Source: Candidatus Altiarchaeota archaeon (GTDB lineage: Archaea; Altiarchaeota; Altiarchaeia; IMC4; SCGC-AAA252-I15). Taken from it: 64,000 nt of DNA. Within the stretch, counting starts at the first letter, position 1. Every line of letters begins with the position of its first letter. Below, piece by piece: positions 5,365-50,780 of this stretch. The DNA is taken from the NCBI GenBank assembly GCA_043804895.1, contig JAZDIN010000004.1, positions 8,887 through 72,886 on the forward strand, written 5' to 3'. The notes under the pieces were generated by a model. It saw nothing but the letters and a program-made list of their open reading frames with translations. It made no database searches and was not told where the DNA came from. The translations under genes were made by a program, and so were the position numbers.

Positions 5365-5443
5365 CCAGATCCGTGTACCCTATTTCCCCATCCCCAAATC
5401 CCCATGATTTTAAAGTCCTACGACCTACTCAGAAAGAGCATAT

Positions 5444-5528
5444 GACTACAGGCGCAGGGGAGGTAGTCATACAGAGTATCCCCACTTAAACTAAACATAC
5501 TGTCCAACACCTAATCGGGGCGACCTAT
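5444..5528 (+). repeat. R-family repeat, copy R1 (full length, with the 9-bp-stem hairpin)
   Basis: tatgactac (5441-5449) and gtagtcata (5463-5471) form a 9-bp stem around a 13-nt loop. Downstream come tcccc-acttaaa and the core aatcggggcgac (5513-5524). About 80% identical to R4 by eye. Confidence 0.75.
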
Positions 5529-6478
5529 TAAAGGTTTAGCGACTGGACTTTTAGGGTGACTTTATCGTCACTTTTGCATTCGTTTATCTCAATCGTGATA
5601 TGCGTGAGCTCGTGAACCTTCTTTAATCTTTCCTTGTAGTATTTGACAGAGTATTTCCTGGCTGTTACGACAGAGATTATGCTGGCGTATTTTTCATCTG
5701 CCACCTGTAATAGGTGCAAATCGCAGACTTTTGAGTCTCCATCGGATTCTATTATCTCTTTGATGTCATTTGATAAAGAAGAAACCATCTTGTGATCTAG
5801 CAATATACTCGCGGAGTCCCTCAATAGCAATGCCGACCATCGGGCTATTAAAAAAGCGCCAACCAGCCCCATAACAGGGTCCAGCCAGTTAAGGTTATAA
5901 TACTTTGCCCCGAGCAAGGCTGTTATGGCGAATACGGACGTCAATGAATCCGCGATTACGTGAAGGTATGCAGAACGGAAGTTCAAATCGTCATGGTTGT
6001 GATGCTCATGAGTATAGGGTGTTGATCCCCTATTGAGTATGGCTATGCATACAAGGTTGACTATAAGGCCGATTATTGCCACGGCAATTGCCTCGTTGTA
6101 GATAATGTTCAAGGGGTGTATAAGTCGTTCGACTGAAGTATAAGCCATTATCACCGCAACCAATCCAAGAATTAAGGCGCTAGAATAGGCTCCAAGTATC
6201 TCGATTTTCCATGTACCAAATGTGAAGCGAGCATTTTCAGATTGTTTCCTAGCCACTGTGTAAGCTATAACCGATATGCCTAATGCAAACGCATGGGTTC
6301 CCATATGCCAACCATCAGCCAATAAAGCCATGGAGTGAGTAAGCCATCCAAACAGAATTTCGGCAATCATCATCAGGAACGTGATTGCCACCACGATTAA
6401 CGCCACCTTCTCCAGACTTTTCTTGTCCCTATTGAAAGAATGATGATGCTGCCACTCCATTAAATGACTATGGTGCAT
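5528..6478 (-). CDS. Cation diffusion facilitator (CDF) family metal efflux transporter
   Basis: 316 aa with 6 TM segments. It has a His-rich N-terminus (MHHSHLMEWQHHH), a His-rich loop (HEHHNHDD) and a C-terminal cytoplasmic domain, the typical CzcD/ZitB architecture. Confidence 0.85.
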   Translation of the reverse strand: MHHSHLMEWQHHHSFNRDKKSLEKVALIVVAITFLMMIAEILFGWLTHSMALLADGWHMGTHAFALGISVIAYTVARKQSENARFTFGTWKIEILGAYSSALILGLVAVIMAYTSVERLIHPLNIIYNEAIAVAIIGLIVNLVCIAILNRGSTPYTHEHHNHDDLNFRSAYLHVIADSLTSVFAITALLGAKYYNLNWLDPVMGLVGAFLIARWSALLLRDSASILLDHKMVSSLSNDIKEIIESDGDSKVCDLHLLQVADEKYASIISVVTARKYSVKYYKERLKKVHELTHITIEINECKSDDKVTLKVQSLNL

Positions 6479-7325: not shown

Positions 7326-7389
7326 GTAGCGTAGTCACATAGAGTATCCCCCACCTAAAACGAACAGATTCTTCTAGTCCCGATCGGAG
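7326..7389 (+). repeat. R-family repeat, copy R2 (degenerate 5' hairpin, intact 3' part)
   Basis: The sequence gcgtagtcacatagagtatcccccacctaaaacgaacagattcttctagtcccgatcggag aligns with R1 and R4. It ends 1 nt before the stop codon of the ABC permease. Confidence 0.7.
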
Positions 7390-8160
7390 TTATACTTTCA
7401 TCTTCTTGAAGGCGTATGTTCCTATGGCTATCATCAGCGCCGAGAATAGGGTTAACGCAGCGAAATCCAATATCATCGGGAATGCTGAGACGCCAAGCAG
7501 CGCGCCCCTGAGGCCGTCGACTGCATAAGTCGCGGGGTCCAACATGGTGAGCGGGGCCAGCCAGGGTGGCAGGTTGTCTATAGGGTAGAGGGCTCCGGAG
7601 AGGAAGAACATTGGGAATATCACGAAGCTTATCACCAGTTGGAATCCTTCGGGGCTTTCCATCTGCGACCCGATGATGAGGCCTACGCTGACCATGCCGG
7701 CGGTCGTCATGAGCATGAACGCCAACGCTATGGGGACTGACACGACATTCATATGTAGGCCGCTCATCATCCCTGTCGCGGACAGTATGAACCCGATGGT
7801 GAGGAGGATGACGGCCTGTATCACCGTCTCGGTTGAGCCGCCGACGACCTTCCCTATGAAGATTGACGTCCTGGACATGGGAGAGACGAGGACTTCCTTC
7901 AGGAAGTCCACCTTCTTGTCCCAGATTATGTACACACCGAAGAAGATGGATGAGAAAAGGACCGCCTGCACCAGCACGCCAGGGTAGATGAACGTCTGGT
8001 AGTCCATTCCGTTGACTGATACGAATGAGCCTATCCCGCCGCCGAGGAGCACGAACCAGAGCAACGGGTTTATGACCGAGGACACGGCCCTCGACTTCTC
8101 CCTCATGAACACCTTGGACTCCCTGTACCAGAGCGCGTAAATCCCCTTAAGCTGTATCAT
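7390..8160 (-). CDS. ABC-2 type transporter permease
   Basis: 256 aa with 6 TM segments, immediately downstream of the ABC ATPase on the same strand. Confidence 0.75.
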   Translation of the reverse strand: MIQLKGIYALWYRESKVFMREKSRAVSSVINPLLWFVLLGGGIGSFVSVNGMDYQTFIYPGVLVQAVLFSSIFFGVYIIWDKKVDFLKEVLVSPMSRTSIFIGKVVGGSTETVIQAVILLTIGFILSATGMMSGLHMNVVSVPIALAFMLMTTAGMVSVGLIIGSQMESPEGFQLVISFVIFPMFFLSGALYPIDNLPPWLAPLTMLDPATYAVDGLRGALLGVSAFPMILDFAALTLFSALMIAIGTYAFKKMKV

Positions 8161-13411: not shown

Positions 13412-16400
13412 TCAGTATTTCCTGGGTCCTGACAGCATCTCGTCTGACACCCAGTAGGTTCTGGCTTCCATGTCAGGTTGTTGTTCAAGGATTTTTGCTT
13501 TCTCCAGCCGGTCCACAACGTCTATTATCTCCTTGGGGGTGTGCGGGAGGTCTTCGTTTTCTGAGGGGTTCTGCCAGTAGAGGTGCATGCACAGTCTTTC
13601 CAGGTGTCTTTGCCTTATGGTGTGCCACAGGTTCAGGCGGTGTCCGCTTAAAGTCTCTATGATCTTCACCATTATATCCTTAGTTTCGGCAGTGCCTCTC
13701 ACCTCCTCGCTTAGTATCTTGCCTAGGGTCTCCTGCGCAAGGTTTTCAAGGTTCTCGTCTCCTGGGAACTTTTTCGTCAGCGCGTAGTATCCTCGCGTGC
13801 CGACTGGGATTATTAGTCCCTGTTTCTTTAGGGATTGTACCACGTTGTTAACTTTGCTCTCGTCTATCCCCAGGTCTTGTGCCACTTCCTTGTTTATGCC
13901 CTCGCGTTTCATTATGCCCTGCCCGACGAGGAGCACGTTAGATATGACCTTGAGGACCGCCCTGGCGGCATAGGGGTTAGGGAACCGTGATATGCGTTCC
14001 TCGATCTCCGCCTCTCTGTCCTCCAGGGCAGGGTGTAGGACCATTGCCGGGTTCGGAACAGTAATTTCGTACATGTCCTTCAGTATGTGTACGTCGCGGT
14101 GGTCTTCATAAGACCTTGGCTTTTCCTTCAGGATGTGCGGGCTGATGGCGTCAGTCTCATGGTCTGCCTCCAGCAGTATACCAACGTGGCGTAGCTCGCG
14201 CAGCAAATCCCTCACGTAAGGGTTCATGACATCTTTTGTCTCCGGCAACCCTGGACAACCATTCGTCAGGCAGTCGGTGACGAGGTCATCTCTACCTACC
14301 GTGTGGTTCGGCTTGTTAGAGATTATGTTGATTATTAGACGGGCTGCCTCGAGTTTATCGTCCTTGACATTAAGCAGCAACCTCTCTAGCCTCATTTTAT
14401 TAACATTCTCGTTAGTCTGGTCCCATGAGGTTGTCTTACCATCGTCTGATTTTATGTCTCTGAGGAGGCATCCATCAGATACGCTTGGGCTTGTTTCAGG
14501 GTCGGTTACTACACCAAGCCGAGACAATTCCCTGAGGTCTGCCTTTATCCCTTCGATACGACCAGCTTCGGTGTCTGGGTATATGACCCCAAGTACCGGG
14601 TGTTTTGAGCAGAGTTCTGCCAATTTCTTTATCTCCAGGTGGCCGGTGAAGTGGCTTACAGCTTTTGCCAGCTCCTCCTCCACGTAGCTTAACCTCCTGT
14701 TGTTTATGGTTTCCGCGTTAACGTAGCGTTGGAAAGCGTGGAACGGGTGGGGGAAATCCGGTTGGGGGCGTCTCTTGTACGGGTTCGCAAAGACCTTCCC
14801 GTCCATGAGTATCATGTCCTTTTGCATGAGTTCCTTCCTTGTCATCTTGTGCGTTGATGATGCTGTGGTTGATGGTGTTGTGCTGACTTCTCCCTCGTCT
14901 TCTTCCTCGGGGTCTTTCCCGAGTATTCTTGTATACTCAACATAACTGATCGAGCCTTCTTTGTTAAGCTTTCCCACAACGACCATTGTCTTGTTCACGT
15001 CCTTCAGGTGTCTTGAGTCGATCAGCATCGTCGGGGGAAGCGAACCAGTCTGCCCGTAAAGTTTCTCTGCCCCGATTCTGTTAAGATTTTTGAGAGCATC
15101 AATGCTTGCGAGTCCCCTGTGTTTTCCGGAGCCGACCTTTCTGAGATAGTCTTCGACAAGACCCCACACCTTACTGCTCTTGCGCTCCCATGTGTCGAGA
15201 GTCTGGATCTCGTCTAGTGCCTCCTTCCTCGTTAAAAAGTCTATGAGTATAGGCTGTTTCGCTATCGCCCTGAAGTATTCTGTCGTGTCTATGCCCCTCT
15301 TCTTCAGGTCTTTGGCGTCGATCTTCTGCAGCTTCCTTATGCGCATGTTGACGTTTAGCGTCCCGTACGATTCGGTAAGTGCTCCGAAGTCGCTGGGTCT
15401 CCCAAGGAACACAGCCCTTAGTATGGACTCCTTTGTTGCATCTTCTCCTAGTTCAACGTCCGGCAGTTTTGAAAGGACTTCAGACATCTCCTCCGCTAGT
15501 TTCACCCCCCTGTCTATCCTCCCGAGGTCTGTGCATTCATCGATGTTTTTCGTGTTCTGGAGTATGTGTGTTAGGAATCCCATCTGGAAGTCGGATTCGC
15601 CGACGCCCCCCATTCTTTTGACTGCGGGAATGATCTTCTTTTCGATGTCCCTCGCCGCCGTTTTGCCTGTCATGAAAATCCTGAAGTTGTTGTTCCATTT
15701 CGCCAGATCTAACATCCTAAGGTATGCGTCCTCCCCGAGTTCTTTGCCTAAGTTGAGGGTCCAAATTCTTAGCACCCCCTCTATCACCCTCTCCGCTTCA
15801 ACCACGTCCACCTGTGGGGGGAGTGGTTTTGCTGGGATTTCTTCAGTGGTGGCGCCTTCACCTACTGTGAGAGTCTTATCTTCTGCAGGCTCGGCGGGAG
15901 CGGGCTTCGGAGGCTCGACCATGCCGATTATGACATCAAGCTGGTAGACTATGTCTTCTAAGATAGGCCTTGAGATTCGTTTATGTTCTTCCAGGTCATC
16001 TCTGTATTTTTGTTTTGGGATGAGTTCAGGGTCTATGCGGGGCTCTGATGATTTAAGATCCTTTTCTAATTGTTCTAATTGTGGGCTTAGAAAATGCCAG
16101 GCCGCTGTTTTTTGTCTTTTCTTTCGTGTGTCTGCTGTTAGGAACTCTAGTTGGTCTTGTTTGTCTTGCGGGATGAAGTTGGGGTGTAGGTAGGTGTCGA
16201 CTGATTCGCCGCCTCCTTTAGTCAGGTATGAGGTGGCTAGGATAAACTCGGCATATGCCCAGTCTCCCGCGTTGATGTGGTCTATCAGCCTCTGGGTCCT
16301 CTCCGAGTCACGGGACAGTGTCTTCCACTCTGGGAGTTTTTCTTTTTTTATTAGTTCGGCGCCGGCGGCGGCTCTGAAAGGCCCTTCCTCCTGCCTGAGG

Positions 16401-19400
16401 AGTGATGACAAATTCTCTAGGGTTGTTTTTTCTAGCCCCGCAACTACAGATAGTGTGTTGAACTCATCCTCCCTGCCGTCGGCTTTAAGCCAGAATGCGT
16501 CCTCAAGTACTGCCGTGGACTTCCCGTGCAGCTTCACGATTTCCGTGTGGTGTTCTCTGAGGAACTCGTCTGCGGAGGGGATGCTTCCCCTGTCAGCCCA
16601 GTTATAGTACCAGCCGGCCAATCCGAGGTCGCAGTTTTGAGGTAGTGTGTCCTCGAACTTCCTCTCCCCTTCGGATATGCCATGTAAGGCCGCCATTTTT
16701 TCCCCCATATTTTGTGGCGTCATATCGGTCAATGCTTCTCTGAGATGTGTGAAGTATTCGCCGTCAAGCAGTTGGAACCTGCCGACCTCTCGGATGTCCT
16801 GTGCGAATTGGCCTAGGTTGAGGACTCCCTTGATGACTTCGATTCTGCCCGCACCTACCACAGCCGATCTTAGCGTTTGGAGGGCTCTGACGACCGTCTC
16901 GGGCTTAGTGCCGCTGTGATTCTCTTTGAACTGTTTGATGAACTGTTGCGCTTCGCCGGTTGATGCGAAAAGCTTCGGGTTGTCGGACCAGATTCTGGAG
17001 AATTCCTCCCTGACTCCTCTGTCAAAGTCGCCAAACATCATATTCACTACCCTCGGCCTCTCCTCAGGGTGTATGCCCTCTGCCTCCCAGGAGCGGTCTC
17101 TTGCCTTTGTCAAGTCTGTGATGGTATTTTCCTGGTTCGCTAGTAAGGGCGTAAGGTGTTCGACGCCGGTGACCTTCAGTATGCTGTTGACTTCCCGGAG
17201 TGTGTTATCTCTTTTGGCTTCATCGTCTGAAATCGTTAGGATAACCTGGGCTTTCACACTCTCGTCGCCGCCTTTACCGAGCCTCCTCAATGCCTCCTCT
17301 GCAAGCTGCCACCGATTCTTTGGACCTGACCAGCGGGAGAGTTTTTCAAGATTTTCCGGTGTGAAAAAGTCTCTGTGCTCCCCCCCGACTAGGAGGCCCA
17401 GTATGCCACCCAGTTTACCTGCATTTTTCAGGGCGTGTAGGTGGTCTATTGTCCTTGGTTCCTCTTCGATGAGGTTACTGACAGTGTCGGAGGTGATTGC
17501 AGAGGTGTGTTCCGAGAGTAGGTTCAGATATTTCGCAGCCGACCCCTTCGAGGTCTCCTCAGCCCTCAGCAGGAGGGATGTAGTCCCTTCTGATGCTAGT
17601 AATGCACGCCTGTCAGGTTCAGAGTCCATGAACAGGTCGAAGTAATCTTGCACGTATGGTCTTTTGACCATCTCTTTCAGCGTGTCCCTGTAGTCTGGAT
17701 TGGTTAAACATGAGAAATATTTTAGAGCGTATTCTGCCTCCCTGCTGGAACCCTCTGGCATGTTCTCTGGCTGCTTTAGTTTAGTCCGGCCCTGGGCCGA
17801 CCTTAATAGGCGGTCCATCAACGGGCCCAGTATCTCCGGCTCCGCCTCCACTGTTTGCAGGAAGGCTTTACCAGTCTCTGATGTGGGTATGAGATACTCC
17901 TGCGCCCTCTCAATCCTATAGAAGCCTAATACGGTCTTGGGTGTGTCAGGCCCCATCCTTTCCAGCTGGTCCAAGTATTCTTGTGTTACCACCATGTCAA
18001 GACGGTCCATCCTATCCAGGGGTATCCTGTCAAGGGACTGGACATAGTCCACCATAAATTGTCTTTCAACGTTCCCCTTCTTTGAGATTAGCTCGTATAT
18101 CTCCGCCGGTATGTCCTTTTTTTCGCCTGGCTGGTCTTCTTTAACGAATAGTGTATTGATGTCTATGGATTCATCCCCTAAACCAGTGCCGCCGGTAACT
18201 CCCTCTGTCCAATATGCTGCTGAGAGTGGCTGATTCTCCCTGTTGAGCTTTATTACCCGGTCTATGAACTCGTTGAAGTGGTAGTTCATAGAAAGGCTCA
18301 CCCTGCCCTCCTGGACCTTAGCCAGCTTCTTGTCGACTTCCCTTTCTATGAGTCTCATACCGTCCAGGTTTTTTATATTCGTGGTGGCGGCTGGGAGTTT
18401 AGTCACAGCACCGTTTATCTCCTTAATCCATTTTAGCATCTGCTCCATCGAGTCTATGCTCCCCCACTGGTCCAACTCCTCCAGGGACAGGAGGAACGCG
18501 TTATTCGCTTCTTTCGCGTCTCCGAGTTGTTTTATGAAATTTGGGCTTTCTGGCTCGCCAGCGTTTACCGCGGATATTGCTTCTCTGAGCGAGGTCACAG
18601 GAGCTGAACTCCGTAGGACATAATGGAATTGTTCACGCATCTTTGTCATGTTGTCCGTTAGGCTGCCTAGAGCAATGACCGAATCATATGCCACGTCGAC
18701 AACGGCTGTGGAGTACAGCGTCTGTTGTTCGGGCTTAAGGGACAACACCCCCTTAACAACATCCATGAACTTCGCCGGGTTGATTTCCGATAGGGTATCC
18801 GGATGGAAAAAATCTTCGGGTTTGACTTCGGCTTCTGATTCTATCCCCTTAGTCCGTTCCAACACACCCTCGCGTACCGTCTCGAATGGTACGCCGGCCT
18901 TCAGCTTGGAGGCCATCTCCTCCATCACCTCTATCGCCGATTTGACGGTATCGGAGTCCCTTATTTTCGTCATACCGGCCCTAACGGTCTCCCTGGCGGT
19001 TATGTCCTCTTCTTTGATTGAACGTTCGATGATCTTATCGCTTTTCCAGTATTTCGTTCTTTTCCTCAGGTCCTTTAAGACGTGGTTGATTTCTTCACCG
19101 CCTTCAATCCTCTGGACGAATTCTTTTATCTCCCCGATAGCTGCTAGCACTATTATGTATCGTTCAACGCGGTCGTATGTTTCCTTCATTTGGGAGGAGT
19201 GCGTTCTAACTGCTGCGCTATACCCAAAGGCATCTGTCAGATGTTTCTGGGCCGCGTCAATGTCCTCAAACCCGATGGACGAAAGCGCCTGCTCCCGTAG
19301 GTCAGGTTTTAGGCGTAGGATGTAGGAGGGGTCGAATGACACTATTTTTCCGAGGACTGTCTTATCGTCTTGGGTGATGCTTGGCTCAGCGATTCTGAAG

Positions 19401-21277
19401 AGTAGGGACATGAATCTCCTCCTTGACGTTTCATCAGATTTTTCATGAGAAGTTAACGTATCGGAATAGGTCAGATTCACCCACCGGATTACGTGGTGGT
19501 TGGCTTTGTTTGCTATTTCCAGAGCACTGTCCTTTGTGTATGATTTATTGGTTTCCTGGTCTACTAGCACCCGCTCTTCACCGAATTTTACCCCGCGCAT
19601 CAGGAGGGCATATTCTGCCTGGATGAAAGACAACACCCTCCGCCTCATCTGCTTCTCATCCAACACGTCCACTGTAGGCCCCTCGCCCCCACCAAATGAG
19701 ACGGAGATTGGCATATTATCGCCACCTTCGTGTTCACGTAATTTAATGGTTGACAACAGCGTCTGCTCAGCCAGGCCTTTCTGCCTCGACTCTAATTGGG
19801 CAAGGTTGTCGATTGTCTCCTGCCTCGCGGCTGTAGCAAATTTAGGTTTCATGTGTTCAGGTATGGCAGCCAGCGACCTCACATAGGTTGGCATGAAAGG
19901 GAGCCCGCTGTTTTCTAGTATCAGTCCAAGGACTTCTGGTCGGCACAATCTGTCATCTACAGTCAACGCTGGTTGGCTGGAGGTGTCTATCTTAACAGCC
20001 GACTCCCAAAGTGCCTTAGCAACAAGTGGTGTCATCCTGTCAGAAAGTAACACGCCCATAAGGCTTGACATGTTCTCCTGGGCTTCTTTCAGGGTTACTG
20101 CCTCCCCATGGTCCTTTAAACGTTCTCCCATACCGTCCAGACCACGCTTTATTGACTTGACATAGTCTTCAGTGTCAGGGGGTAAGGGGGAGTCGACAAG
20201 GGCATCGGTTAGATTAGAGGCCCACCCTATCATTTTTAGTATGGGGACACCCATCCCCCATGCATTCAGCTGCCTGGAGACTTTTAAAATCTCCTTATTT
20301 GCAGCATCCAGTATTTTAAGCTTTTTCTGGAACGTCTTCGTCCCAGCTTCCTCGCCCGCAACATCAGTTAAACAGGCAGCCCATTTTTTCAAGATCTCCT
20401 CTTCACCCATATTCGAGGCGATTGTCCCGCCAAGATCTAGCACAGCCAAGGATGCATTTGTCAAGCTCCCCGCAGAATTTATTCCTACACCGAATAGCAG
20501 GGTTGTATAGAACTTTTTCTCCCCTTCCGCTAATTTTCCCTCATTCAGTAATTCGGACATGCGGGTAATAACACCCTTCCTCAAATCAAATACCTGACTG
20601 GGGTTTAGTGCCTCTTCGCTCTGGTTTGACCAGAATTCGGATGGGCTTACCTCCTGACCAGCGTCATACTTGCCTTTTACTTCCCGCATTTTTTTGACAA
20701 TACCGTGACCTGTCCGTTCAAAACGGAATCCGGCCCTCACCGCATCCAGTGCCTTACCTGCCCCATCTTGACTGAAACCAATCGCTTTCAAAGTATCAAC
20801 TGCCTCGTCTTCTTTCAGAAGGAGTAGAGAGTATGCTGATGGCGCAAACCTAAGCTCATCACCCATGAAAGTCGTGTCCAAGAGTAAATTGAACAACTGC
20901 TTGTCAGGTAGGCCCTTGGTTTTTGCACCCAATTCGAGTATTTCACCAACTATCACCTCGGACATTTTCTTGTCCATTTTTTCGGAGGCGAGGGAGTCGC
21001 TGAAACGCCATAAAAGCCATTTCAGATATTTTGGATTGCTCTGCTCAACTGCCTTGAGTACCTGGTCAAGTTTGACATCTGAATATTTTTCCTTAACCTG
21101 AAATTCGCCTTTTTTCACATAAACCGGTAGCGTGCCCTTAACCGGCCCATCTGCTTTTTCGAATACCTTCTGGATGTAGTCTATTATTCTTTTTCTTGTT
21201 TCCATGACTCCATCCATCAGTGGGGGGAGCCCTCCGCCATCACCCCAATGGTAGTACTTTGTAGGGCCTAGTGGCAT
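13412..21277 (-). CDS. Giant hypothetical protein (2621 aa), cytoplasmic and largely alpha-helical, with four C-terminal winged-helix-like modules
   Basis: A single uninterrupted 7.9-kb ORF. All + strand ORFs across it are short shadow ORFs. I see no signal peptide, TM segment, P-loop or HExxH. The C-terminal 450 aa shows a fourfold pattern ending LRELSRLGVV, LRELRHVGILL, VQSLKKQGLIIPVGTRGYYALT and VDRLEKAKILE. Confidence 0.8.
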   Translation of the reverse strand: MPLGPTKYYHWGDGGGLPPLMDGVMETRKRIIDYIQKVFEKADGPVKGTLPVYVKKGEFQVKEKYSDVKLDQVLKAVEQSNPKYLKWLLWRFSDSLASEKMDKKMSEVIVGEILELGAKTKGLPDKQLFNLLLDTTFMGDELRFAPSAYSLLLLKEDEAVDTLKAIGFSQDGAGKALDAVRAGFRFERTGHGIVKKMREVKGKYDAGQEVSPSEFWSNQSEEALNPSQVFDLRKGVITRMSELLNEGKLAEGEKKFYTTLLFGVGINSAGSLTNASLAVLDLGGTIASNMGEEEILKKWAACLTDVAGEEAGTKTFQKKLKILDAANKEILKVSRQLNAWGMGVPILKMIGWASNLTDALVDSPLPPDTEDYVKSIKRGLDGMGERLKDHGEAVTLKEAQENMSSLMGVLLSDRMTPLVAKALWESAVKIDTSSQPALTVDDRLCRPEVLGLILENSGLPFMPTYVRSLAAIPEHMKPKFATAARQETIDNLAQLESRQKGLAEQTLLSTIKLREHEGGDNMPISVSFGGGEGPTVDVLDEKQMRRRVLSFIQAEYALLMRGVKFGEERVLVDQETNKSYTKDSALEIANKANHHVIRWVNLTYSDTLTSHEKSDETSRRRFMSLLFRIAEPSITQDDKTVLGKIVSFDPSYILRLKPDLREQALSSIGFEDIDAAQKHLTDAFGYSAAVRTHSSQMKETYDRVERYIIVLAAIGEIKEFVQRIEGGEEINHVLKDLRKRTKYWKSDKIIERSIKEEDITARETVRAGMTKIRDSDTVKSAIEVMEEMASKLKAGVPFETVREGVLERTKGIESEAEVKPEDFFHPDTLSEINPAKFMDVVKGVLSLKPEQQTLYSTAVVDVAYDSVIALGSLTDNMTKMREQFHYVLRSSAPVTSLREAISAVNAGEPESPNFIKQLGDAKEANNAFLLSLEELDQWGSIDSMEQMLKWIKEINGAVTKLPAATTNIKNLDGMRLIEREVDKKLAKVQEGRVSLSMNYHFNEFIDRVIKLNRENQPLSAAYWTEGVTGGTGLGDESIDINTLFVKEDQPGEKKDIPAEIYELISKKGNVERQFMVDYVQSLDRIPLDRMDRLDMVVTQEYLDQLERMGPDTPKTVLGFYRIERAQEYLIPTSETGKAFLQTVEAEPEILGPLMDRLLRSAQGRTKLKQPENMPEGSSREAEYALKYFSCLTNPDYRDTLKEMVKRPYVQDYFDLFMDSEPDRRALLASEGTTSLLLRAEETSKGSAAKYLNLLSEHTSAITSDTVSNLIEEEPRTIDHLHALKNAGKLGGILGLLVGGEHRDFFTPENLEKLSRWSGPKNRWQLAEEALRRLGKGGDESVKAQVILTISDDEAKRDNTLREVNSILKVTGVEHLTPLLANQENTITDLTKARDRSWEAEGIHPEERPRVVNMMFGDFDRGVREEFSRIWSDNPKLFASTGEAQQFIKQFKENHSGTKPETVVRALQTLRSAVVGAGRIEVIKGVLNLGQFAQDIREVGRFQLLDGEYFTHLREALTDMTPQNMGEKMAALHGISEGERKFEDTLPQNCDLGLAGWYYNWADRGSIPSADEFLREHHTEIVKLHGKSTAVLEDAFWLKADGREDEFNTLSVVAGLEKTTLENLSSLLRQEEGPFRAAAGAELIKKEKLPEWKTLSRDSERTQRLIDHINAGDWAYAEFILATSYLTKGGGESVDTYLHPNFIPQDKQDQLEFLTADTRKKRQKTAAWHFLSPQLEQLEKDLKSSEPRIDPELIPKQKYRDDLEEHKRISRPILEDIVYQLDVIIGMVEPPKPAPAEPAEDKTLTVGEGATTEEIPAKPLPPQVDVVEAERVIEGVLRIWTLNLGKELGEDAYLRMLDLAKWNNNFRIFMTGKTAARDIEKKIIPAVKRMGGVGESDFQMGFLTHILQNTKNIDECTDLGRIDRGVKLAEEMSEVLSKLPDVELGEDATKESILRAVFLGRPSDFGALTESYGTLNVNMRIRKLQKIDAKDLKKRGIDTTEYFRAIAKQPILIDFLTRKEALDEIQTLDTWERKSSKVWGLVEDYLRKVGSGKHRGLASIDALKNLNRIGAEKLYGQTGSLPPTMLIDSRHLKDVNKTMVVVGKLNKEGSISYVEYTRILGKDPEEEDEGEVSTTPSTTASSTHKMTRKELMQKDMILMDGKVFANPYKRRPQPDFPHPFHAFQRYVNAETINNRRLSYVEEELAKAVSHFTGHLEIKKLAELCSKHPVLGVIYPDTEAGRIEGIKADLRELSRLGVVTDPETSPSVSDGCLLRDIKSDDGKTTSWDQTNENVNKMRLERLLLNVKDDKLEAARLIINIISNKPNHTVGRDDLVTDCLTNGCPGLPETKDVMNPYVRDLLRELRHVGILLEADHETDAISPHILKEKPRSYEDHRDVHILKDMYEITVPNPAMVLHPALEDREAEIEERISRFPNPYAARAVLKVISNVLLVGQGIMKREGINKEVAQDLGIDESKVNNVVQSLKKQGLIIPVGTRGYYALTKKFPGDENLENLAQETLGKILSEEVRGTAETKDIMVKIIETLSGHRLNLWHTIRQRHLERLCMHLYWQNPSENEDLPHTPKEIIDVVDRLEKAKILEQQPDMEARTYWVSDEMLSGPRKY

Positions 21278-30231: not shown

Positions 30232-30242
30232 TTTCGAGAGAT

Positions 30243-30304
30243 ATAGCTGAGGGCATAACTCTTTAGACCTCTTAGGGGGTATAGTGAGCCTTGTGCCCTC
30301 AGAT
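30243..30304 (-). repeat. Hairpin module M3 (62 nt), copy B
   Basis: Its reverse complement aligns with 45365-45426: atctgagggcacaaggc...ttatgccctcagctat. The terminal arms ctgagggca and tgccctcag pair. Confidence 0.75.
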
Positions 30305-30351
30305 ATATTCGAGAGCATAAAATCCAAGTCAAGAAGGTTATGCTCTCGACT
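30305..30351 (-). repeat. Hairpin module M1 (47 nt), copy B
   Basis: The reverse complement, agtcgagagcataaccttcttgacttggattttatgctctcgaatat, has a perfect 12-bp stem (tcgagagcataa / ttatgctctcga). It aligns with 45264-45310. Confidence 0.75.
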
Positions 30352-30397
30352 ATAATATAGTAAGGACGGTTACGTTAAAAATAGGCGACCACAGCCT

Positions 30398-30452
30398 GTG
30401 ACTGAGAGCCGCTGCTCTCAGACACATTCAGCAACCATTGGCTGCTGAATAT
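30398..30452 (+). repeat. Hairpin module M2 (55 nt), copy B
   Basis: gtgactgagagccgctgctctcagacacattcagcaaccattggctgctgaatat forms two hairpins joined by the conserved acacattc. It aligns with 45311-45364, with compensatory changes in both stems. Confidence 0.75.
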
Positions 30453-30554
30453 CAACGACTGCCGGCTAAAGCCGGCAGTTTGATACGCCGGAAACTACCT
30501 AGTCGAGAGGACTCCCTGAGGGTGTCCCCTGAAGGGGACAGTTTCCGAGCGTAT
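30453..30554 (+). repeat. 102-nt structured element, copy Y (intergenic, directly abutting M2)
   Basis: caacgactgccggctaaagccggcagtttgatacgccggaaact...gtcccctgaaggggacagtttccgagcgtat. The first 45 nt or so and the last 25 nt or so are near-identical to copy Z. It is preceded by TAT and ends in TAT. Confidence 0.8.
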
Positions 30555-31339: not shown

Positions 31340-31546
31340 GATAAATACTTGTGTTCTTATATTTTAGTACCTGTGTGTTTATGAGGTGTTTCTAAATGAG
31401 TTTTCAGCACGATCTCCTGAAACTCCGCTATTCTCCCTTTGCTAGAATAGTCCGGCTACTTCTTACCGCCTTTTTCCCATCCTCCGTCACTCACTTTTTA
31501 TCCTCTTAGGATAGAGGTTAAAAACGATTATTTCATTTTCTTGAGG

Positions 31547-31594
31547 TTCCCCCACCTAAATCGAACAGAGTGTTCTAGTCCCGGTCGGGGCGAA
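31547..31594 (+). repeat. R-family repeat, copy R3 (3' part only)
   Basis: ttcccccacctaaatcgaacagagtgttctagtcccggtcggggcgaa aligns with the 3' half of R4. Confidence 0.7.
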
Positions 31595-31714
31595 GTTATC
31601 CAATTCCCTAATATATGTCGGTTATGACGTCCTTAGCTTGTACTGTCTGAGCCTCCTGAGAGATTTGAACACTTTGTACGAGGTAATGTTTTTACCCCTA
31701 CAAAATGCCTAATT

Positions 31715-31757
31715 TGTAGTCATATTTTTGTAGTCATATTTAAACTTGTAGTCATAT
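31715..31757 (+). promoter_or_regulatory. Three direct copies of tgtagtcatat immediately upstream of the Fic ORF
   Basis: Copies lie at 31715-31725, 31729-31739 and 31747-31757. The 9-mer gtagtcata is the 3' arm of the R-family hairpin, and its complement tatgactac overlaps the Fic stop at 32705-32713. Confidence 0.6.
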
Positions 31758-31758
31758 A

Positions 31759-32709
31759 GTGTTATTGATGCACATTGAGGTTCAGGAGCGCGGCGGGAAG
31801 AAGTTCATTTATGTGGCTCATTCCTTCCGTCATGGGGGTAAAGTTAGGAAGTTGAGGAAATATCTAGGAGTCAACCTTAGTGGAAAGGAGATATCTTCTT
31901 TGAGGCCTGCTGCTGAGAAGGCGCTGATGTGGCGGGCTGAGGCGAGTAAGAGCATCCGCGACCCCCTGAAGACTGTTTTGTCTCCTCAGGAGATGGCGTC
32001 TATCAAGTCCTTGATTGGAAAGCACGACATTAAGATAAGCCATCTGTCTGAAAAACAGTGGGTTAGATTCACCGAACTCTTCGCATATGATACTAACGCC
32101 ATAGAAGGGTCAACAGTGGATTTGGCCGAAGTCAAAGGCATATTGGAGAGAGATAAGTGGCCTGACAAGGCGAAGGATGAGATTGCTGAGACATATGGGG
32201 TGTCTGACGCAGTCAAGTTGATTAGGAGGACTAAAGAACACCTGTCAATCGAGTTGATAATGGAACTACACAAAATTGTTTTCAAGAACTCTAAAGGGTT
32301 CGCGGGTAGGCTGCGCCCACCTGGAGTAGAAGTAGTGGTCACAAACCGTTTTGGAGAGATCATCCATAGAGGCGCACCCCAAAAACATGTCTTGAAACTT
32401 CTAAAGGAACTCGTGGAATGGTACGCAGAAAACAAGAAACGATACCACCCTATTGTCCTTGCAGCTGTCGTCCACAACCACTTCGAAAACATCCACCCAT
32501 TTGAGGATGGAAACGGGAGGGTTGGAAGACTCCTATTGAACAACATACTACTTAAGCACGACCTCCCCCCAGTTAACATTGAATTAAAAAACAGAAAAGG
32601 GTACTACGCTTCTTTACAAGCGTACGAAAAGGCGGGTAATCTCAGACCAAGTATAGAGTTGGTATTAACGTCCTATGACAGACTCAAGAAAACCCTGAGG
32701 AGTATATGA
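31759..32709 (+). CDS. Fic-domain protein (AMPylase / Fido family)
   Basis: Carries the canonical Fic motif HPFEDGNGRVGRLL. The ATG at 31768 (MHIEVQERGG) is the more likely start; the track starts at the GTG at 31759. Confidence 0.85.
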   Translation: MLLMHIEVQERGGKKFIYVAHSFRHGGKVRKLRKYLGVNLSGKEISSLRPAAEKALMWRAEASKSIRDPLKTVLSPQEMASIKSLIGKHDIKISHLSEKQWVRFTELFAYDTNAIEGSTVDLAEVKGILERDKWPDKAKDEIAETYGVSDAVKLIRRTKEHLSIELIMELHKIVFKNSKGFAGRLRPPGVEVVVTNRFGEIIHRGAPQKHVLKLLKELVEWYAENKKRYHPIVLAAVVHNHFENIHPFEDGNGRVGRLLLNNILLKHDLPPVNIELKNRKGYYASLQAYEKAGNLRPSIELVLTSYDRLKKTLRSI

Positions 32710-32789
32710 CTACATGCCCCAGAGGCGTAGTCATACAGAGTTTCCCCCACCTAAACCGAACAAACTGTTCGAGTCCCGATCGGGGCGAC
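32708..32789 (+). repeat. R-family repeat, copy R4 (best-preserved copy)
   Basis: tatgactac (32705-32713) and gtagtcata (32727-32735) form the hairpin. Then come tttcccccacctaaa, the hairpin cgaaca-aac-tgttcg, and gagtcccgatcggggcgac followed by a T6 run. Confidence 0.8.
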
Positions 32790-32930
32790 TTTTTTCAAGG
32801 GGGTACTAGTTCTGTTATAATTTATTTTTAGCTTATTTGGTTAGGGTTCATTTGTTAATGTGAGGGGGTTTGAACCTTAAAGTTGTAGTCTTGATGTAAT
32901 TACCGCTTGCCAGCAGTGCAAACACGCCTG

Positions 32931-34520: not shown

Positions 34521-34609
34521 ATCTGCTTTCTAGCCACAATTACCTATTAAACTACACTATTAAAAACAATCTTAATCTCATGAAACTGTGAAACCACATT
34601 ATGACATAT

Positions 34610-34714
34610 GACTACAAAAACCTAAGAGGTAGTCATACAAACTCAAATGTCACCAGTTTGCGTCTATCGTTTTCTTTGGGGATTCGAACAAACAATTCGA
34701 GTCCCAATCGGGGC
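34610..34714 (+). repeat. R-family repeat, copy R5 (hairpin and 3' core conserved, middle diverged or expanded)
   Basis: tatgactac (34607-34615) and gtagtcata (34629-34637), then cgaacaaacaattcgagtcccaatcggggc ending 1 nt before the stop of the class II aldolase gene. Confidence 0.7.
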
Positions 34715-35263
34715 TCATCGACAGTATACCCTTTGTATCAGTTTGAACGCCTCCTCGAGTGTGGCGCCTACTGCGACGACTCCGTGCCGTCGTATCACAA
34801 TGTAATTTGATTTTCCGAGAGCCTCCACGACGTCCCTCGCCTGACTTAGTGTTCCGTAGGGGTGGACCCGGTCTGTGACGACGAGGCCTAGGGGGTTTTT
34901 GACTGCCAGGCTGTCGTGGGCGTGTATCACCGCGTTCACCTTCGGATACTTCTGGTATATGAGCCAGTGCATCGGAACCTCAGAGGACGGCTCAACTGAA
35001 CCCACCACATGGGCGGTCCTGTTTTTGAATTCGCGGACTTCGACTATACCCCCCGGAGTTAACTGGCCTTTGTTTTTTCCGCCGGGGGTGATTAACATCC
35101 CCTTCTCTGTTCTGACGCTGATGTTGCCTGCGTTCTCGGGGGTGAGGCCCATCTCGTTCAGCTTCCTGCCTACGGCGACGATGGATTCGGCTGCACTGCC
35201 ACCAGCTGAGAATTTACTTAGGAACTTTGTCCTGAACTTCCTGCCAACGTACTCCTCAGCCAT
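34715..35263 (-). CDS. Class II aldolase/adducin-family protein (FucA / MtnB-like)
   Basis: 182 aa with GNISVR, SSEVPMH and AVIHAHD (Zn-binding His pattern). Confidence 0.8.
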   Translation of the reverse strand: MAEEYVGRKFRTKFLSKFSAGGSAAESIVAVGRKLNEMGLTPENAGNISVRTEKGMLITPGGKNKGQLTPGGIVEVREFKNRTAHVVGSVEPSSEVPMHWLIYQKYPKVNAVIHAHDSLAVKNPLGLVVTDRVHPYGTLSQARDVVEALGKSNYIVIRRHGVVAVGATLEEAFKLIQRVYCR

Positions 35264-36555: not shown

Positions 36556-38895
36556 TCAGACGACTGAAGGCCCGTTTTGCTTTTGCAGTTCCCTGAAGAA
36601 GGAGTCTATCTTCCCCAAGTCAACGCCATCAGAGAAGTACTTATCAAACAACGGCTCAACCTGGCCTTTGGCGCCGTGATAGTCCGAATCGCCCCCATGT
36701 TGCCAGGAGTCATATCCAGCTGATTTGAAACGGTCATGGTGAAGCATTCTGTCTACTGTATACCCCTCCTGCCACTTAGGGATGCCATACTCCTGGATTT
36801 TTGGTTCAAGCTGCAGGCGCATGGTATCCCGGGCGAGCATATCCCTCAACTCCTCGGGGCTCTTATGTTCCCCGGCAGAACTGAGTTCCCTGAAGAATGC
36901 ATCTATCTTTCCCAGGTCGACTCCGTCAGCGAAGTATTTATCAAACAGCGGGTCTACCTGGGCTTTGGCGCCGTGATAATCAAAACCTTCCGGACCCTGC
37001 CAGCGGGGTTTACCTGTTTTCAGGCCCGTATAATCTGTGGACTGGAACTTCTCGACTATCATCTTGTCGACTACATACTCCTTTTGCCACTGAGGGATTT
37101 TATAGTCCTGTATGAATTTTTCAAGTTGCAAATGCATGGTTTCGTGGACTATCGTGTTCTTCAACTCCTTTGGAGTTTTCAACTCCCCATTAGAATTGTA
37201 GAGGTTATCAAGTATCTGGCGAGTCTTCAGGTTATAACTACCGCCCACCCCATAGTCAGTTAGAACGATTTCAGAGGGGAGTACAACCTTTTCCCCGAAT
37301 ATACCGGCTAAATCCTTGAAGTATTTGCCCAGGGTCGCCCAATATTCCTGCGTTATCTTTGATTCCTCAGCTAAGAACTTGTTAGAGTCATGCTCTTTCT
37401 TTATTGCAGCCTCTATTTCAGGCGTTGTCGACTGCTTACTAACTCCGGAAGGCAGCTTAAGGCCTAAACCTTTGCCATATACTTCTTCTTTCCCGAATAC
37501 TTCGGCCAATTCGTCGATGTATTCGCCCAAATTCTGCCCATACTGCTGCATCATCTTTGATTCAGCATCCAAGAATCTGTTGGGAGTATACTCGCCTTCA
37601 AGAGGCAGGTTGGGAGGTGGGTCCCAGAAGTATCTGTTCTGGGCGTAGAGCATGTTCTTTACAACCCCTATTTGACTTTCTAAATCTGATTTAAAATTAA
37701 GCCCAACTGCAGCTTCGTTCTTTCCCTGGGGATTGTTGATGCCCGCAAACTCGGCGAAGTTTTTGTCCTTCCTGTGCTCGAACAGCTCTACGATGCCGAT
37801 AAGACCTTTATTGCCGTCTACGTCATACGGTCTGCAAAGCGTCCCGACCAGTTGGTCGACACCTATCCCCTTCTCCTTCGCGTTGTCAACCACGGACTCC
37901 CACATCTTAAGGCCTAGGAAGTATAGGGGGTGATCCTCACGATAGTTTAACTGCGGTTCCAAACCCAGTTTCCGTATGATTGTCTCGTCCATGTATGATG
38001 CGAAGCCCTCATGGGTGAGGCTCGAGTCGGAGAGGCCGTTGGGGTGGTCCTTGTTTAGCCGGACTATTGTATGTTCGTCCTCCAGTATTATCCTCTTTTC
38101 ACTCCGGAGTTCACTGTAGATTGAACGGACCCGCCTATCATCAAGTTTGACTTCAGACCCTTCAAAGTTCTTCGGTACGTTTTTTTTATTTTCCGCCTCT
38201 ATTGCGTTATTCCGGATGTGGCTTCCCTCATGGATAAACCCGTCAAGGACGCCAACCAATGGCTGTTCCTCATTAGGCCTGTAGAAGACAGCCTCCCCGT
38301 CTGCAGCTACACCGTGTTTCGCTGCGAATTCTGCTGTCCGGTCACGCGTACCCCGGATACTTTGGGCTATGTCGGTCAGGCCGTATTTTTCATTCCCAAG
38401 GAGTTCGGCCATGTCTGTTAGCCGCTGGAGGAAGGTGCTGTTGATTACCTCTCCTCCACTATGGCTTGCTTTTTCGCCTTCCGCATACCATAGTCTTCTA
38501 AGATTATCCTTGTCTTTGAGCATTCTCTCTAGGGTCCCTTTGTATGATTCTCCTTCCTTCATTTCCCGTATGAGTCTAACATGGAATAGAGAAACGTGGA
38601 AATCCTCTTTTGAAGCCGTGTACATGCCGATATCCAAGCCGCTTTCATCCTTGAGGAGGCGATTTGCTATGGCAGGGATGACCTCCAATGCCTGCTCACG
38701 TGGTAGACAGAGTATATTCTTAACCAATTCTGGTAATTTGTCCGTAGGAGTCGTATCTGGAGAAGTAACTCGCTGTATGGCATCAGCAATCTTCAATTTC
38801 CTGCTCCTCTCATCCAGTTCATCGATTAGGGGGTTTCTAGCTGTTATATTGGAATCACCCTCTTTATGGGGGTTTTCTATTACTTTCGGGCTCAT
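36556..38895 (-). CDS. Large hypothetical protein with two HExxH motifs (putative Zn-metallopeptidase-like) and a C-terminal tandem duplication
   Basis: 779 aa, with FIHEGSHI near aa 230 and IVHETMHL near aa 588. The last ~190 aa are two ~95-aa repeats (PKELKNTIVHETMHLQLEKFIQDYKIPQWQ...DYHGAKAQVDPLFDKYFADGVDLGKIDAFFREL versus PEELRDMLARDTMRLQLEPKIQEYGIPKWQ...DYHGAKGQVEPLFDKYFSDGVDLGKIDSFFREL). The duplication is also visible in the DNA (36560-36880 versus 36880-37200). Confidence 0.7.
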   Translation of the reverse strand: MSPKVIENPHKEGDSNITARNPLIDELDERSRKLKIADAIQRVTSPDTTPTDKLPELVKNILCLPREQALEVIPAIANRLLKDESGLDIGMYTASKEDFHVSLFHVRLIREMKEGESYKGTLERMLKDKDNLRRLWYAEGEKASHSGGEVINSTFLQRLTDMAELLGNEKYGLTDIAQSIRGTRDRTAEFAAKHGVAADGEAVFYRPNEEQPLVGVLDGFIHEGSHIRNNAIEAENKKNVPKNFEGSEVKLDDRRVRSIYSELRSEKRIILEDEHTIVRLNKDHPNGLSDSSLTHEGFASYMDETIIRKLGLEPQLNYREDHPLYFLGLKMWESVVDNAKEKGIGVDQLVGTLCRPYDVDGNKGLIGIVELFEHRKDKNFAEFAGINNPQGKNEAAVGLNFKSDLESQIGVVKNMLYAQNRYFWDPPPNLPLEGEYTPNRFLDAESKMMQQYGQNLGEYIDELAEVFGKEEVYGKGLGLKLPSGVSKQSTTPEIEAAIKKEHDSNKFLAEESKITQEYWATLGKYFKDLAGIFGEKVVLPSEIVLTDYGVGGSYNLKTRQILDNLYNSNGELKTPKELKNTIVHETMHLQLEKFIQDYKIPQWQKEYVVDKMIVEKFQSTDYTGLKTGKPRWQGPEGFDYHGAKAQVDPLFDKYFADGVDLGKIDAFFRELSSAGEHKSPEELRDMLARDTMRLQLEPKIQEYGIPKWQEGYTVDRMLHHDRFKSAGYDSWQHGGDSDYHGAKGQVEPLFDKYFSDGVDLGKIDSFFRELQKQNGPSVV

Positions 38896-45234: not shown

Positions 45235-45263
45235 GCTATCCTATAGGGGGTGCAGGGTATTAT

Positions 45264-45310
45264 ATTCGAGAGCATAACCTTTTTGACTTGGATTTTATAC
45301 TCCCGAATAT
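45264..45310 (+). repeat. Hairpin module M1 (47 nt), copy A
   Basis: attcgagagcataacctttttgacttggattttatactcccgaatat. Its stem has 2 mismatches relative to copy B. It is preceded by tattat. Confidence 0.75.
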
Positions 45311-45364
45311 GTGGCTGAGACATATGTCTCAGACACATTCGACAGCCAATAGGCTGTCGCATAT
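45311..45364 (+). repeat. Hairpin module M2 (54 nt), copy A, lying between M1 and M3
   Basis: gtggctgagacatatgtctcagacacattcgacagccaataggctgtcgcatat, with hairpins ctgagac/gtctcag and cgacagcc/ggctgtcg. In the other locus M1 and M3 are directly adjacent. Confidence 0.8.
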
Positions 45365-45426
45365 ATCTGAGGGCACAAGGCTTATGATACCCCCTAGGAA
45401 TTCTAAAGAATTATGCCCTCAGCTAT
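45365..45426 (+). repeat. Hairpin module M3 (62 nt), copy A
   Basis: atctgagggcacaaggcttatgataccccctaggaattctaaagaattatgccctcagctat, with terminal arms that pair. Confidence 0.75.
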
Positions 45427-45440
45427 AAATCCGGCCGACT

Positions 45441-50363: not shown

Positions 50364-50732
50364 ATGTTCTACGGGAGGAATATACCAGCAGCGTTGATGA
50401 GAAGTGGGTTAGAGGATAGGCTGCTTAGGGTGTGCGAGGAGGAGGACTTGTCCTACCTGGCATTGTTCGGCTCCTATGCTAGGGGGAAGGCGAAACCAAG
50501 GAGCGATTTGGACATAGCGATAGAGTATGAGAAAGGCGCGGATAAGACACTCTTTGACTTGATTTCATTGGAGGAGAGGTTGCGGAGGCCTTTCAGGAGG
50601 AAAGTCGACCTTGGGATTCACGATACCATAAGCCCGCACGTGATAGATAACGTCAGGAAGGACATGAGGGTCATATATCAACGACTGCCGGCTAAAGCCG
50701 GCAGTTTGATACGCCGGAAACTGCCTAGTTGA
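50364..50732 (+). CDS. Minimal nucleotidyltransferase (MNT antitoxin); its C-terminus is extended by insertion of element Z
   Basis: LFGSYARGKAKPRSDLDIAIE matches the GS...D.D NTase motif. The last 17 aa, QRLPAKAGSLIRRKLPS, are encoded by the 102-nt element and recur in the spurious ORF 30438..30650. Confidence 0.75.
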   Translation: MFYGRNIPAALMRSGLEDRLLRVCEEEDLSYLALFGSYARGKAKPRSDLDIAIEYEKGADKTLFDLISLEERLRRPFRRKVDLGIHDTISPHVIDNVRKDMRVIYQRLPAKAGSLIRRKLPS

Positions 50733-50780
50733 GTGGAGTACATGCAACTGTCCCTTGGAAGGGACAGTTTCCGAGCGTAT
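50679..50780 (+). repeat. 102-nt structured element, copy Z (inserted at the MNT/HEPN junction)
   Basis: caacgactgccggctaaagccggcagtttgatacgccggaaact...gtcccttggaagggacagtttccgagcgtat. It is flanked by TAT (50676-50678) and ends in TAT (50778-50780). Removing it restores an overlapping gene pair. Confidence 0.85.

Follow-up and report, generated by a model that had tools for sequence, protein, structure and literature searches.

The stretch analysed here (the window) comprises 64 kb of the genome of a Candidatus Altiarchaeota archaeon (assembly GCA_043804895.1, contig JAZDIN010000004.1) and contains a family of intergenic repeats, R, two copies of which enclose a gene for a Fic-family protein. 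The family has five copies (R1, 5441-5528; R2, about 7326-7389; R3, 31547-31594; R4, 32705-32789; R5, 34607-34714), all on the + strand; this count, first given by a first-pass annotation made from the letters alone, was borne out by pattern and nhmmer profile searches. The copies sit within two stretches of low GC content at 4-8 kb (GC 0.44-0.48) and 30-34 kb (GC 0.42-0.43), referred to as islands 1 and 2, whereas the remainder of the window is at ~0.50-0.55. The gene between R3 and R4 encodes a Fic protein that matches, at 100% identity, an NCBI "Fic family protein" of Candidatus Altiarchaeota archaeon located on a 141-kb contig, and the AdoHcyase encoded beside island 2 shows 84-89% identity to proteins from Candidatus Altiarchaeota metagenome-assembled genomes (MAGs).

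Repeat copies and the Fic gene

A complete R copy consists of a palindrome, TATGACTAC-N13-GTAGTCATA, and a core of ~55 nt with the pattern …AGTTTCCCCCAC…CGAACA…TTCGAGTCCCGATCGGGGCGA. A core profile was built from 17 aligned cores with a mean column identity of 71%; it identified the five core intervals given below and no further copy in the 64 kb, the cores being confined to the island segments, as the first-pass annotation had stated. Lnnn denotes the related loci or contigs used for comparison, and a cassette is a leader followed by its gene(s) and a core. The features are as follows.

5410-5440, + strand: remnant of a Fic 3' coding end upstream of R1 (gtcctacgacctactcagaaagagca against the Fic end gtcctatgacagactcaagaaaaccctgaggagta, direct comparison)
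5441-5471, + strand: R1 palindrome TATGACTAC-N13-GTAGTCATA, an operator-like Fic box pair with no Fic gene adjoining
5468-5526, + strand: R1 core, a cassette-end repeat (nhmmer E 2.8e-10)
7331-7339, + strand: residual 3' arm of R2, variant GTAGTCACA, the same variant as in the promoters of L034 and L038
7337-7395, + strand: R2 core (nhmmer E 7e-16), right border of island 1
31540-31596, + strand: R3 core, no hairpin (nhmmer E 8.5e-17), upstream boundary of the Fic cassette; homology with L018 begins here
31716-31756, + strand: three direct GTAGTCATA boxes (31716, 31730, 31748) around a TATA-like TTTAAA, read as a putative Fic promoter/operator
31768-32709, + strand: Fic-family gene (FICD-like, class II; Pfam Fic 1.2e-19; PDB FICD E 1e-26; Foldseek 4u07 E 3e-12)
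32705-32735, + strand: R4 palindrome, with the Fic stop codon TGA within its 5' arm (taTGActac)
32732-32792, + strand: R4 core, the best-preserved copy (nhmmer E 1.7e-19), downstream boundary of the Fic cassette
34607-34637, + strand: R5 palindrome, resembling the 3' flank of a second Fic subtype (L023-like), upstream of a 529-aa gene (- strand)
34638-34715, + strand: R5 spacer (~45 nt extra) and then the 3' half of the core (34683-34715; nhmmer E 1.2e-6)
L032 4956-5918, L032 8395-9303 and L010 6060-7022: Fic paralogues (Fic2/Fic3) with perfect palindromes of their own

The exact palindrome occurs three times in the window (5441-5471, 32705-32735 and 34607-34637) against 0.02 expected. Its arms are identical between R1, R4 and R5 at 18/18 positions, while the loops match at just 5-6/13 and keep a constant length of 13 nt, in agreement with the 9-bp arms and equally long, unlike loops described earlier. 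The cores of R1 and R4 are only 77% identical, and had the arms diverged to that extent an 18/18 match would be expected with p ~0.01. R2 and R3 had been described as copies with a degraded or missing hairpin and a preserved 3' part, and R2 indeed keeps only the variant arm GTAGTCACA and R3 none.

Relatives were found mainly in metagenomes. A search with the hairpin pattern returned 28 contigs, among them L010, L016, L018 and L029, which carry hairpin and core, and L011, L013/L017/L020 and L023, which carry the R5-type version (L013, L017 and L020 are the contigs orthologous to R5). A search by Fic protein homology, which makes no use of the motif, added L032, L033 and L039. The core pattern TCCCCCACCTAAANCGAACA, probably too strict, gave one chance match (a Limnocylindria MAG) in 185,579 species-representative genomes; blastn against plasmids and phages gave a single chance match, viral contigs contained one chance hairpin and no core, and a literature search returned no paper linking Altiarchaeota to such repeats.

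The palindrome as a putative operator of the Fic cassette

The Fic protein carries the motifs HPFEDGNGR and TNAIEG, and its AlphaFold2 (AF2) model (pLDDT 89) contains a FICD-like Fic domain. The first 62-65 residues are predicted to form a three-stranded beta-sheet and a helix (AF2 residues 1-62, pLDDT 92). Upstream of the gene, three direct copies of the GTAGTCATA arm, missed by the first-pass annotation as was the ~30-nt Fic remnant before R1, follow the layout box1-5 nt-box2-TTTAAA-box3-11 nt-ATG. They are among ten exact occurrences of this 9-mer in the window, against 0.3 expected; in the inverted pair the two copies stand 22 bp apart, centre to centre. The TATA-like element lies ~26 nt before the Fic ATG, which suggests a leaderless or short-leader transcript, and box 3 would then lie outside it.

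The same arrangement of box1, box2, TATA-like element, box3 and ATG, with the palindrome downstream of the gene, is found in L010, L018, L032, L033 and L039, and L023 shares this layout, except that its middle box is degenerate and only the other two are exact. Altogether, nine loci, including homologues at 61-63% identity, have boxes on either side of the TATA-like element and ahead of the ATG, and a palindrome stands at the 3' end of the Fic gene in all loci with a Fic1-type gene (the window, L010, L018, L029, L032, L033 and L023), whose products share 80-83% (L010, L018, L029, L032), 76% (L033) or 63% (L023) amino acid identity with the window Fic. In the three loci found through the protein (L032, L033 and L039) the arms are 98% identical and the loops 32%, the spacer being always 13 nt. 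The 3' arm of L033 reads GTAGCCATA; this change breaks the base pairing yet is identical to promoter box 2 of the same locus, which favours recognition as a sequence motif. The more distant homologues (61-63% identity; L034/L037 and L038) lack the 3' hairpin; their promoters instead hold the inverted pair TGTGACTAC-N13/14-GTAGTCACA together with a TATA-like box, and a third box lies ~10 nt ahead of the ATG. The Fic paralogues, in turn, have different palindromes that flank their own TATA boxes (CCTACATTT…AAATGTAGG in Fic2, GTATCGGATAG…CTATCCGATAC in Fic3).

The occurrence of the 9-mer as direct repeats in the Fic promoter indicates that its role is that of a sequence motif rather than of an RNA stem. 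It accompanies a cassette of one gene and changes along with the paralogue, which is most simply explained by an operator to which Fic itself binds. The palindrome of R is thus most likely a DNA operator of the Fic cassette with an autoregulatory role. The hairpin that the first-pass annotation took for a part of the repeat does exist; it is not generic to the repeat, being instead a cis-element specific to the Fic gene. In the mechanism envisaged, the N-terminal beta-sheet domain of Fic would bind the GTAGTCATA boxes and the inverted pair downstream of the gene would serve as an auxiliary operator or as a roadblock.

Fic enzymes with an operator in their own promoter have a precedent in CccR of Yersinia pseudotuberculosis, an autorepressing Fic protein with a DNA-binding domain (PMC9755527), and in the SoFic structure 3eqx, a "Fic domain containing transcriptional regulator". 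In the Altiarchaeota gene the boxes flank a TATA-like element just before the start codon; it differs from both in that its putative DNA-binding region lies at the N-terminus and consists of a three-stranded beta-sheet with a helix instead of a C-terminal helix-turn-helix, and in the additional inverted box pair at the 3' end of the gene. A second likeness is to the arm-type sites of lambda-family integrases, which are bound by a three-stranded beta-sheet N-domain: several 9-10-bp boxes, direct and inverted, stand on both sides of a unit with recombination-like junctions, and the Fic N-domain weakly resembles the arm-binding domain of the HPI integrase (3jtz; TM 0.47, Foldseek E 0.89, not significant). 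As the fold match is not significant and the protein has a Fic catalytic domain and not a recombinase domain, this likeness is a lead only.

Orphan palindromes bear on the same question. Ahead of the palindrome, both R1 and L016 retain 30-50 nt from the 3' end of a Fic coding sequence (in blastn, L016 2434-2563 matches window 32663-32792 at 81.5%), and this coding remnant marks both as remnants of Fic cassettes, decayed in the case of R1. R5 is probably also the leftover of a Fic cassette, since its flank resembles that of the L023-type Fic. The arms of these orphan copies are perfect, which suggests continuing selection on them, as sites bound in trans for instance.

Further observations concern Fic genes and their flanks. 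A mini-palindrome, GTACATTGTAC, stands ~20 nt past the stop codon of Fic2. The Fic leaders of the window (31660-31680), L010, L018 and L032 share a conserved GGGATT(C/T)GAACAC motif that resembles an inverted piece of the core, CGAACA…TTCGAGTCCC, and GGGGATTCGAAC of R5. The Fic genes of L034 (4855-5926) and L038 (4858-5926) and a neighbouring ATP-cone segment (L034 1598-2374, L038 4072-4870) show 84-86% DNA identity, although one contig has a GC of 0.48 and the other of 0.38, the Fic protein of the low-GC contig being labelled Aenigmarchaeota; such identity across contigs of different GC suggests a recent transfer of the Fic cassette between phyla, or a binning error.

Accessory islands are built of modules joined at the core 3' end

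Cores without a hairpin trail unrelated genes in constant orientation in L010, L018 and L032. The genes followed by a core are Fic2, AbrB/RelE and NUDIX in L018 (the stop codons of RelE and Fic2 falling at the core start, CATAAGTT), Fic2, a TATA-binding protein paralogue, a 165-aa protein and secreted peptidases in L010, and an AAA_14/DUF4143 gene and Fic2 in L032. The sites are densely spaced and on a single strand, with spacings of 1.9, 1.2 and 1.9 kb in the window, six sites in 6 kb in L010 and five to six sites in L018.

Homology between related loci breaks at the cores. At the junction after Fic1, hairpin and core, identity falls from 71-80% before to 19-31% after in all pairs but that of the window with L033 (56%); at the Fic2-core junction it falls from 63-69% to 11-26%. 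Homology of the R4 region with L010, L018, L032, L033 and L039 stops at 32778-32800; in blastn, the matching segments of the Fic1 module run from within the final ~12-20 nt of the upstream core as far as the downstream core. What lies upstream varies: the Fic1 leader directly follows the Fic2-core in L032, whereas three different cassettes intervene in L010 and in L018. Two upstream cores in the latter loci (L010_b and L018_d) have unrelated 5' parts and share only …GCGCGATCGGGGCGA, which suggests that the last ~12 nt are the common junction element, and the two cores on either side of Fic1 in the L029/L039 lineage share one variant 3' end, CCCGAAGGGAGCAC.

In the window, the 3' ends of three copies abut or overlap stop codons of convergent genes on the - strand. 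That of the R1 core lies 1 nt from the stop codon of a cation-efflux (CDF) gene (5528-6478; open reading frame (ORF) and Pfam evidence), the altered end of R2, TCGGAGTTA, overlaps the stop codon of an ABC-2 permease gene (7390-8160), and R5, with which island 2 ends on the right, has its GGGGC end directly against the stop codon of a class II aldolase gene (34715-35263).

The islands are built of modules joined at the core 3' end, and array content differs between relatives. With a core after many unrelated genes and modules joined at its 3' end (…CGATCGGGGCGA|), they represent tandem arrays of leader, gene(s) and core. The first-pass annotation had considered an att-like boundary, and this part of its proposal stands, homology between related loci breaking exactly at the core 3' end; the tRNA-like part is without support. 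Taken together, the reading we lean towards is that R is a composite of two independent cis-elements in accessory islands, the Fic operator palindrome and the cassette-end core.

A bolder proposal, which we regard as tentative, is that Altiarchaeota possess a cassette system not described before and distinct from integrons. Through site-specific recombination at …CGATCGGGGCGA| by a putative recombinase, modules composed of their own promoter, gene(s) and the ~55-nt core would enter the arrays, drop out of them and change places, and self-regulated Fic cassettes, which have arm-site-like 9-mer boxes on both sides, would act as conserved anchors or addiction modules. By analogy with attC, the core would serve as the substrate of a site-specific recombinase encoded elsewhere.

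The likeness to integrons, their attC sites and the clusters of attC sites without an integrase (CALINs) is considerable. Both have tandem gene(s) with a 50-60-nt imperfectly palindromic repeat in one orientation at a spacing of 0.6-4 kb, a cargo rich in toxin-antitoxin and other accessory genes, module junctions at the repeat 3' end and an array content that varies between related genomes; as with attC sites, R cores cluster in groups of two or more at distances below 4 kb, all pointing one way, with cassettes between them. The R arrays differ from integrons in that their cassettes carry their own promoters and that no IntI was found in the window or in the scanned related loci. Archaeal integrons were surveyed by Ghaly et al. 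2022 (PMC9668308), where Altiarchaeota appear only as the root of a tree and are unnamed among the integron-bearing taxa.

A number of points weigh against the composite reading, on the operator side as well as on the cassette side. The metagenome loci L010, L016, L018, L023 and L029 were retrieved by exact arms, so their arm conservation holds by construction. A Foldseek search with the model of the Fic N-domain gave no significant structural match (best E 0.38, MoSub1, a PC4-like binder of single-stranded DNA), so that binding of DNA by this predicted domain is no more than plausible. Neither an integrase nor a transposase nor a reverse transcriptase turned up among the ~40 ORFs of the window or in the scanned loci (L010, L016, L018, L029, L032 and L033). 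Three cassette-like intervals of the window hold genes antisense to the core, and the loci showed no circular cassettes, no empty sites and no non-Fic cassette that recurs exactly in two contexts. Compared with attC, the R''/R' sites (RYYYAAC/GTTRRRY) are missing in the 17 aligned cores, whose 3' end is GGGGCGA, and the core is conserved in sequence and lacks a conserved fold. Identity of the core with a canonical integron attC was rejected on account of the absent R''/R' motifs and consensus fold.

Some genes of the variable islands deserve mention. An RsgA-like GTPase gene of bacterial type lies within island 1 immediately before R1 (4255-5364), and a homologue with 75% DNA identity adjoins the Fic array of L018 (1-815). 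Extra TATA-binding protein paralogues are found at L010 5239-5835 (a cassette, followed by a core) and L034 977-1546.

RNA, tRNA and mobile-repeat readings, and significance

R might instead encode or belong to a structured RNA (a 3'-untranslated region element, a terminator or a small RNA), with the 9-bp stem formed at the RNA level and the C-rich CCCCCACCU serving as a seed similar to an anti-Shine-Dalgarno sequence. R4 does fold well (-32.4 kcal/mol, z -5.2) and is followed by T6, R5 folds better than shuffled sequences, if more weakly (z -2.7), and many cassettes have the core directly 3' of the stop codon in sense orientation; R1, R2 and R3, on the other hand, fold no better than shuffles and RNAalifold on the 17 cores finds no consensus fold (-0.16 kcal/mol). 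Weak covariation (one G-C to U-A change; 6/500 shuffles) is seen in a pair of short hairpins, CGAA…TTCG and GUCCC-NNUC-GGGGC, whereas the long hairpin derived from R4 has no covariation support and does not rise above shuffles (47/500, 137/500). There was no Rfam match at the gathering threshold, nor at E<=1 on R4. CACCU, which the first-pass annotation had likened to the 3' tail of 16S rRNA, is not conserved among copies (CACCT, CACTT, CGCCC, CATTA, CGGAA, CCCAA). Considering also that the 9-mer functions as direct repeats at promoter positions that would not be transcribed and that pairing is destroyed by the arm change in L033, an RNA role is unlikely. An intrinsic terminator in particular was rejected, T6 being present only after R4 and T-tracts missing after R1, R2, R3, R5 and most related copies, and so was a small ORF in R, its frames being interrupted by stops and indels in R1 and R5.

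An origin of the core from the 3' end of a tRNA (T-loop, 3' strand of the T-stem and 3' strand of the acceptor, in a tRNA that would end in GTTCGAGTCCCGATCGGGGCG), which would make it the att site of tandemly piled elements that target tRNA genes, is improbable. Judged by what is generally known of integration sites in tRNA genes, the last ~21 nt (TTCGAGT-CCCGA-TCGGGGC-G) are laid out like a T-loop-class att identity block, and core copies are direct repeats that bound inserted DNA, as at archaeal tRNA 3'-end att sites. The R arrays differ from these in having neither a tRNA gene nor an integrase, with units of just 0.6-4 kb, up to six per array, and in a conserved block that runs 30 nt further 5' without tRNA-like arms. 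ARAGORN, the kind of tRNA finder whose use had been proposed, detected neither a tRNA nor a pseudo-tRNA across the window and 17 related loci; a tRNA gene ending in ...TTCGAGTCCCGATCGGGGCG elsewhere in the genome would, on the first-pass view, make R an att-site remnant. The ARAGORN result and the lack of Rfam matches leave the suggested tRNA-like 3' end and tRNA-length reading of R4 without support, and the core pattern is missing from viral contigs. A T-stem was likewise rejected, as already noted in the first pass, for the sequence before TTCGAGT is AACTG, AGTG, AAAAA and the like and not the TCGGG needed to pair with CCCGA.

Finally, there is little to recommend the view that the core is a selfish, non-autonomous repeat, similar to miniature inverted-repeat transposable elements or repetitive extragenic palindromes (REPs), that spreads in AT-rich intergenic DNA and stands at module borders incidentally: it is short and imperfectly palindromic (GTTTCCCC…GGGGCGAC) and is present in multiple diverged copies in intergenic DNA only, but in L010, L018 and L032 it always points the same way with respect to the gene before it, the alignments contain no target-site duplications and no clear terminal inverted repeats, no transposase or REP-associated tyrosine transposase is encoded nearby, and the core alone was never seen present or absent in conserved DNA, gene and core always differing together.

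Other features of the window are distinct from R. Two or three further families of hairpin-rich intergenic repeats are present (30242-30357 and 45258-45427, inverted; 30449-30554 and 50675-50780, direct; 87-92% identity), examples being CTGAGGGCA…TGCCCTCAG, CGAGAGCATAA…TTATGCTCTCG and CTGCCGGCTAAAGCCGGCAG…GTCCCCTGAAGGGGAC; none of these families is related to R, and Rfam returned nothing for them. A single ORF of 2621 aa with a strong AT skew occupies 13412-21277 (- strand). The ORF at 36556-38895 (- strand), without a Pfam or NCBIfam match, contains internal direct repeats of 100-120 nt (36587-37581; 71-79% identity, spaced 198-297 nt), which point to a repeat-domain protein.

R is thus related to two known kinds of system, autoregulated Fic proteins and integron-like cassette arrays. 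As a matter of annotation, such elements should not be called tRNA-like RNAs. The Fic part provides a testable case of an archaeal AMPylase-type toxin that carries its own putative operator, conserved alongside the Fic gene on contigs attributed to different archaeal phyla, and the predicted N-domain of Fic may represent a new beta-sheet DNA-binding domain. If the core is truly a recombination site, it would constitute a second archaeal platform for cassette capture, distinct from attC/IntI integrons, in a deep-branching, uncultured and ecologically abundant lineage, and would explain how the variable islands of these archaea are assembled.

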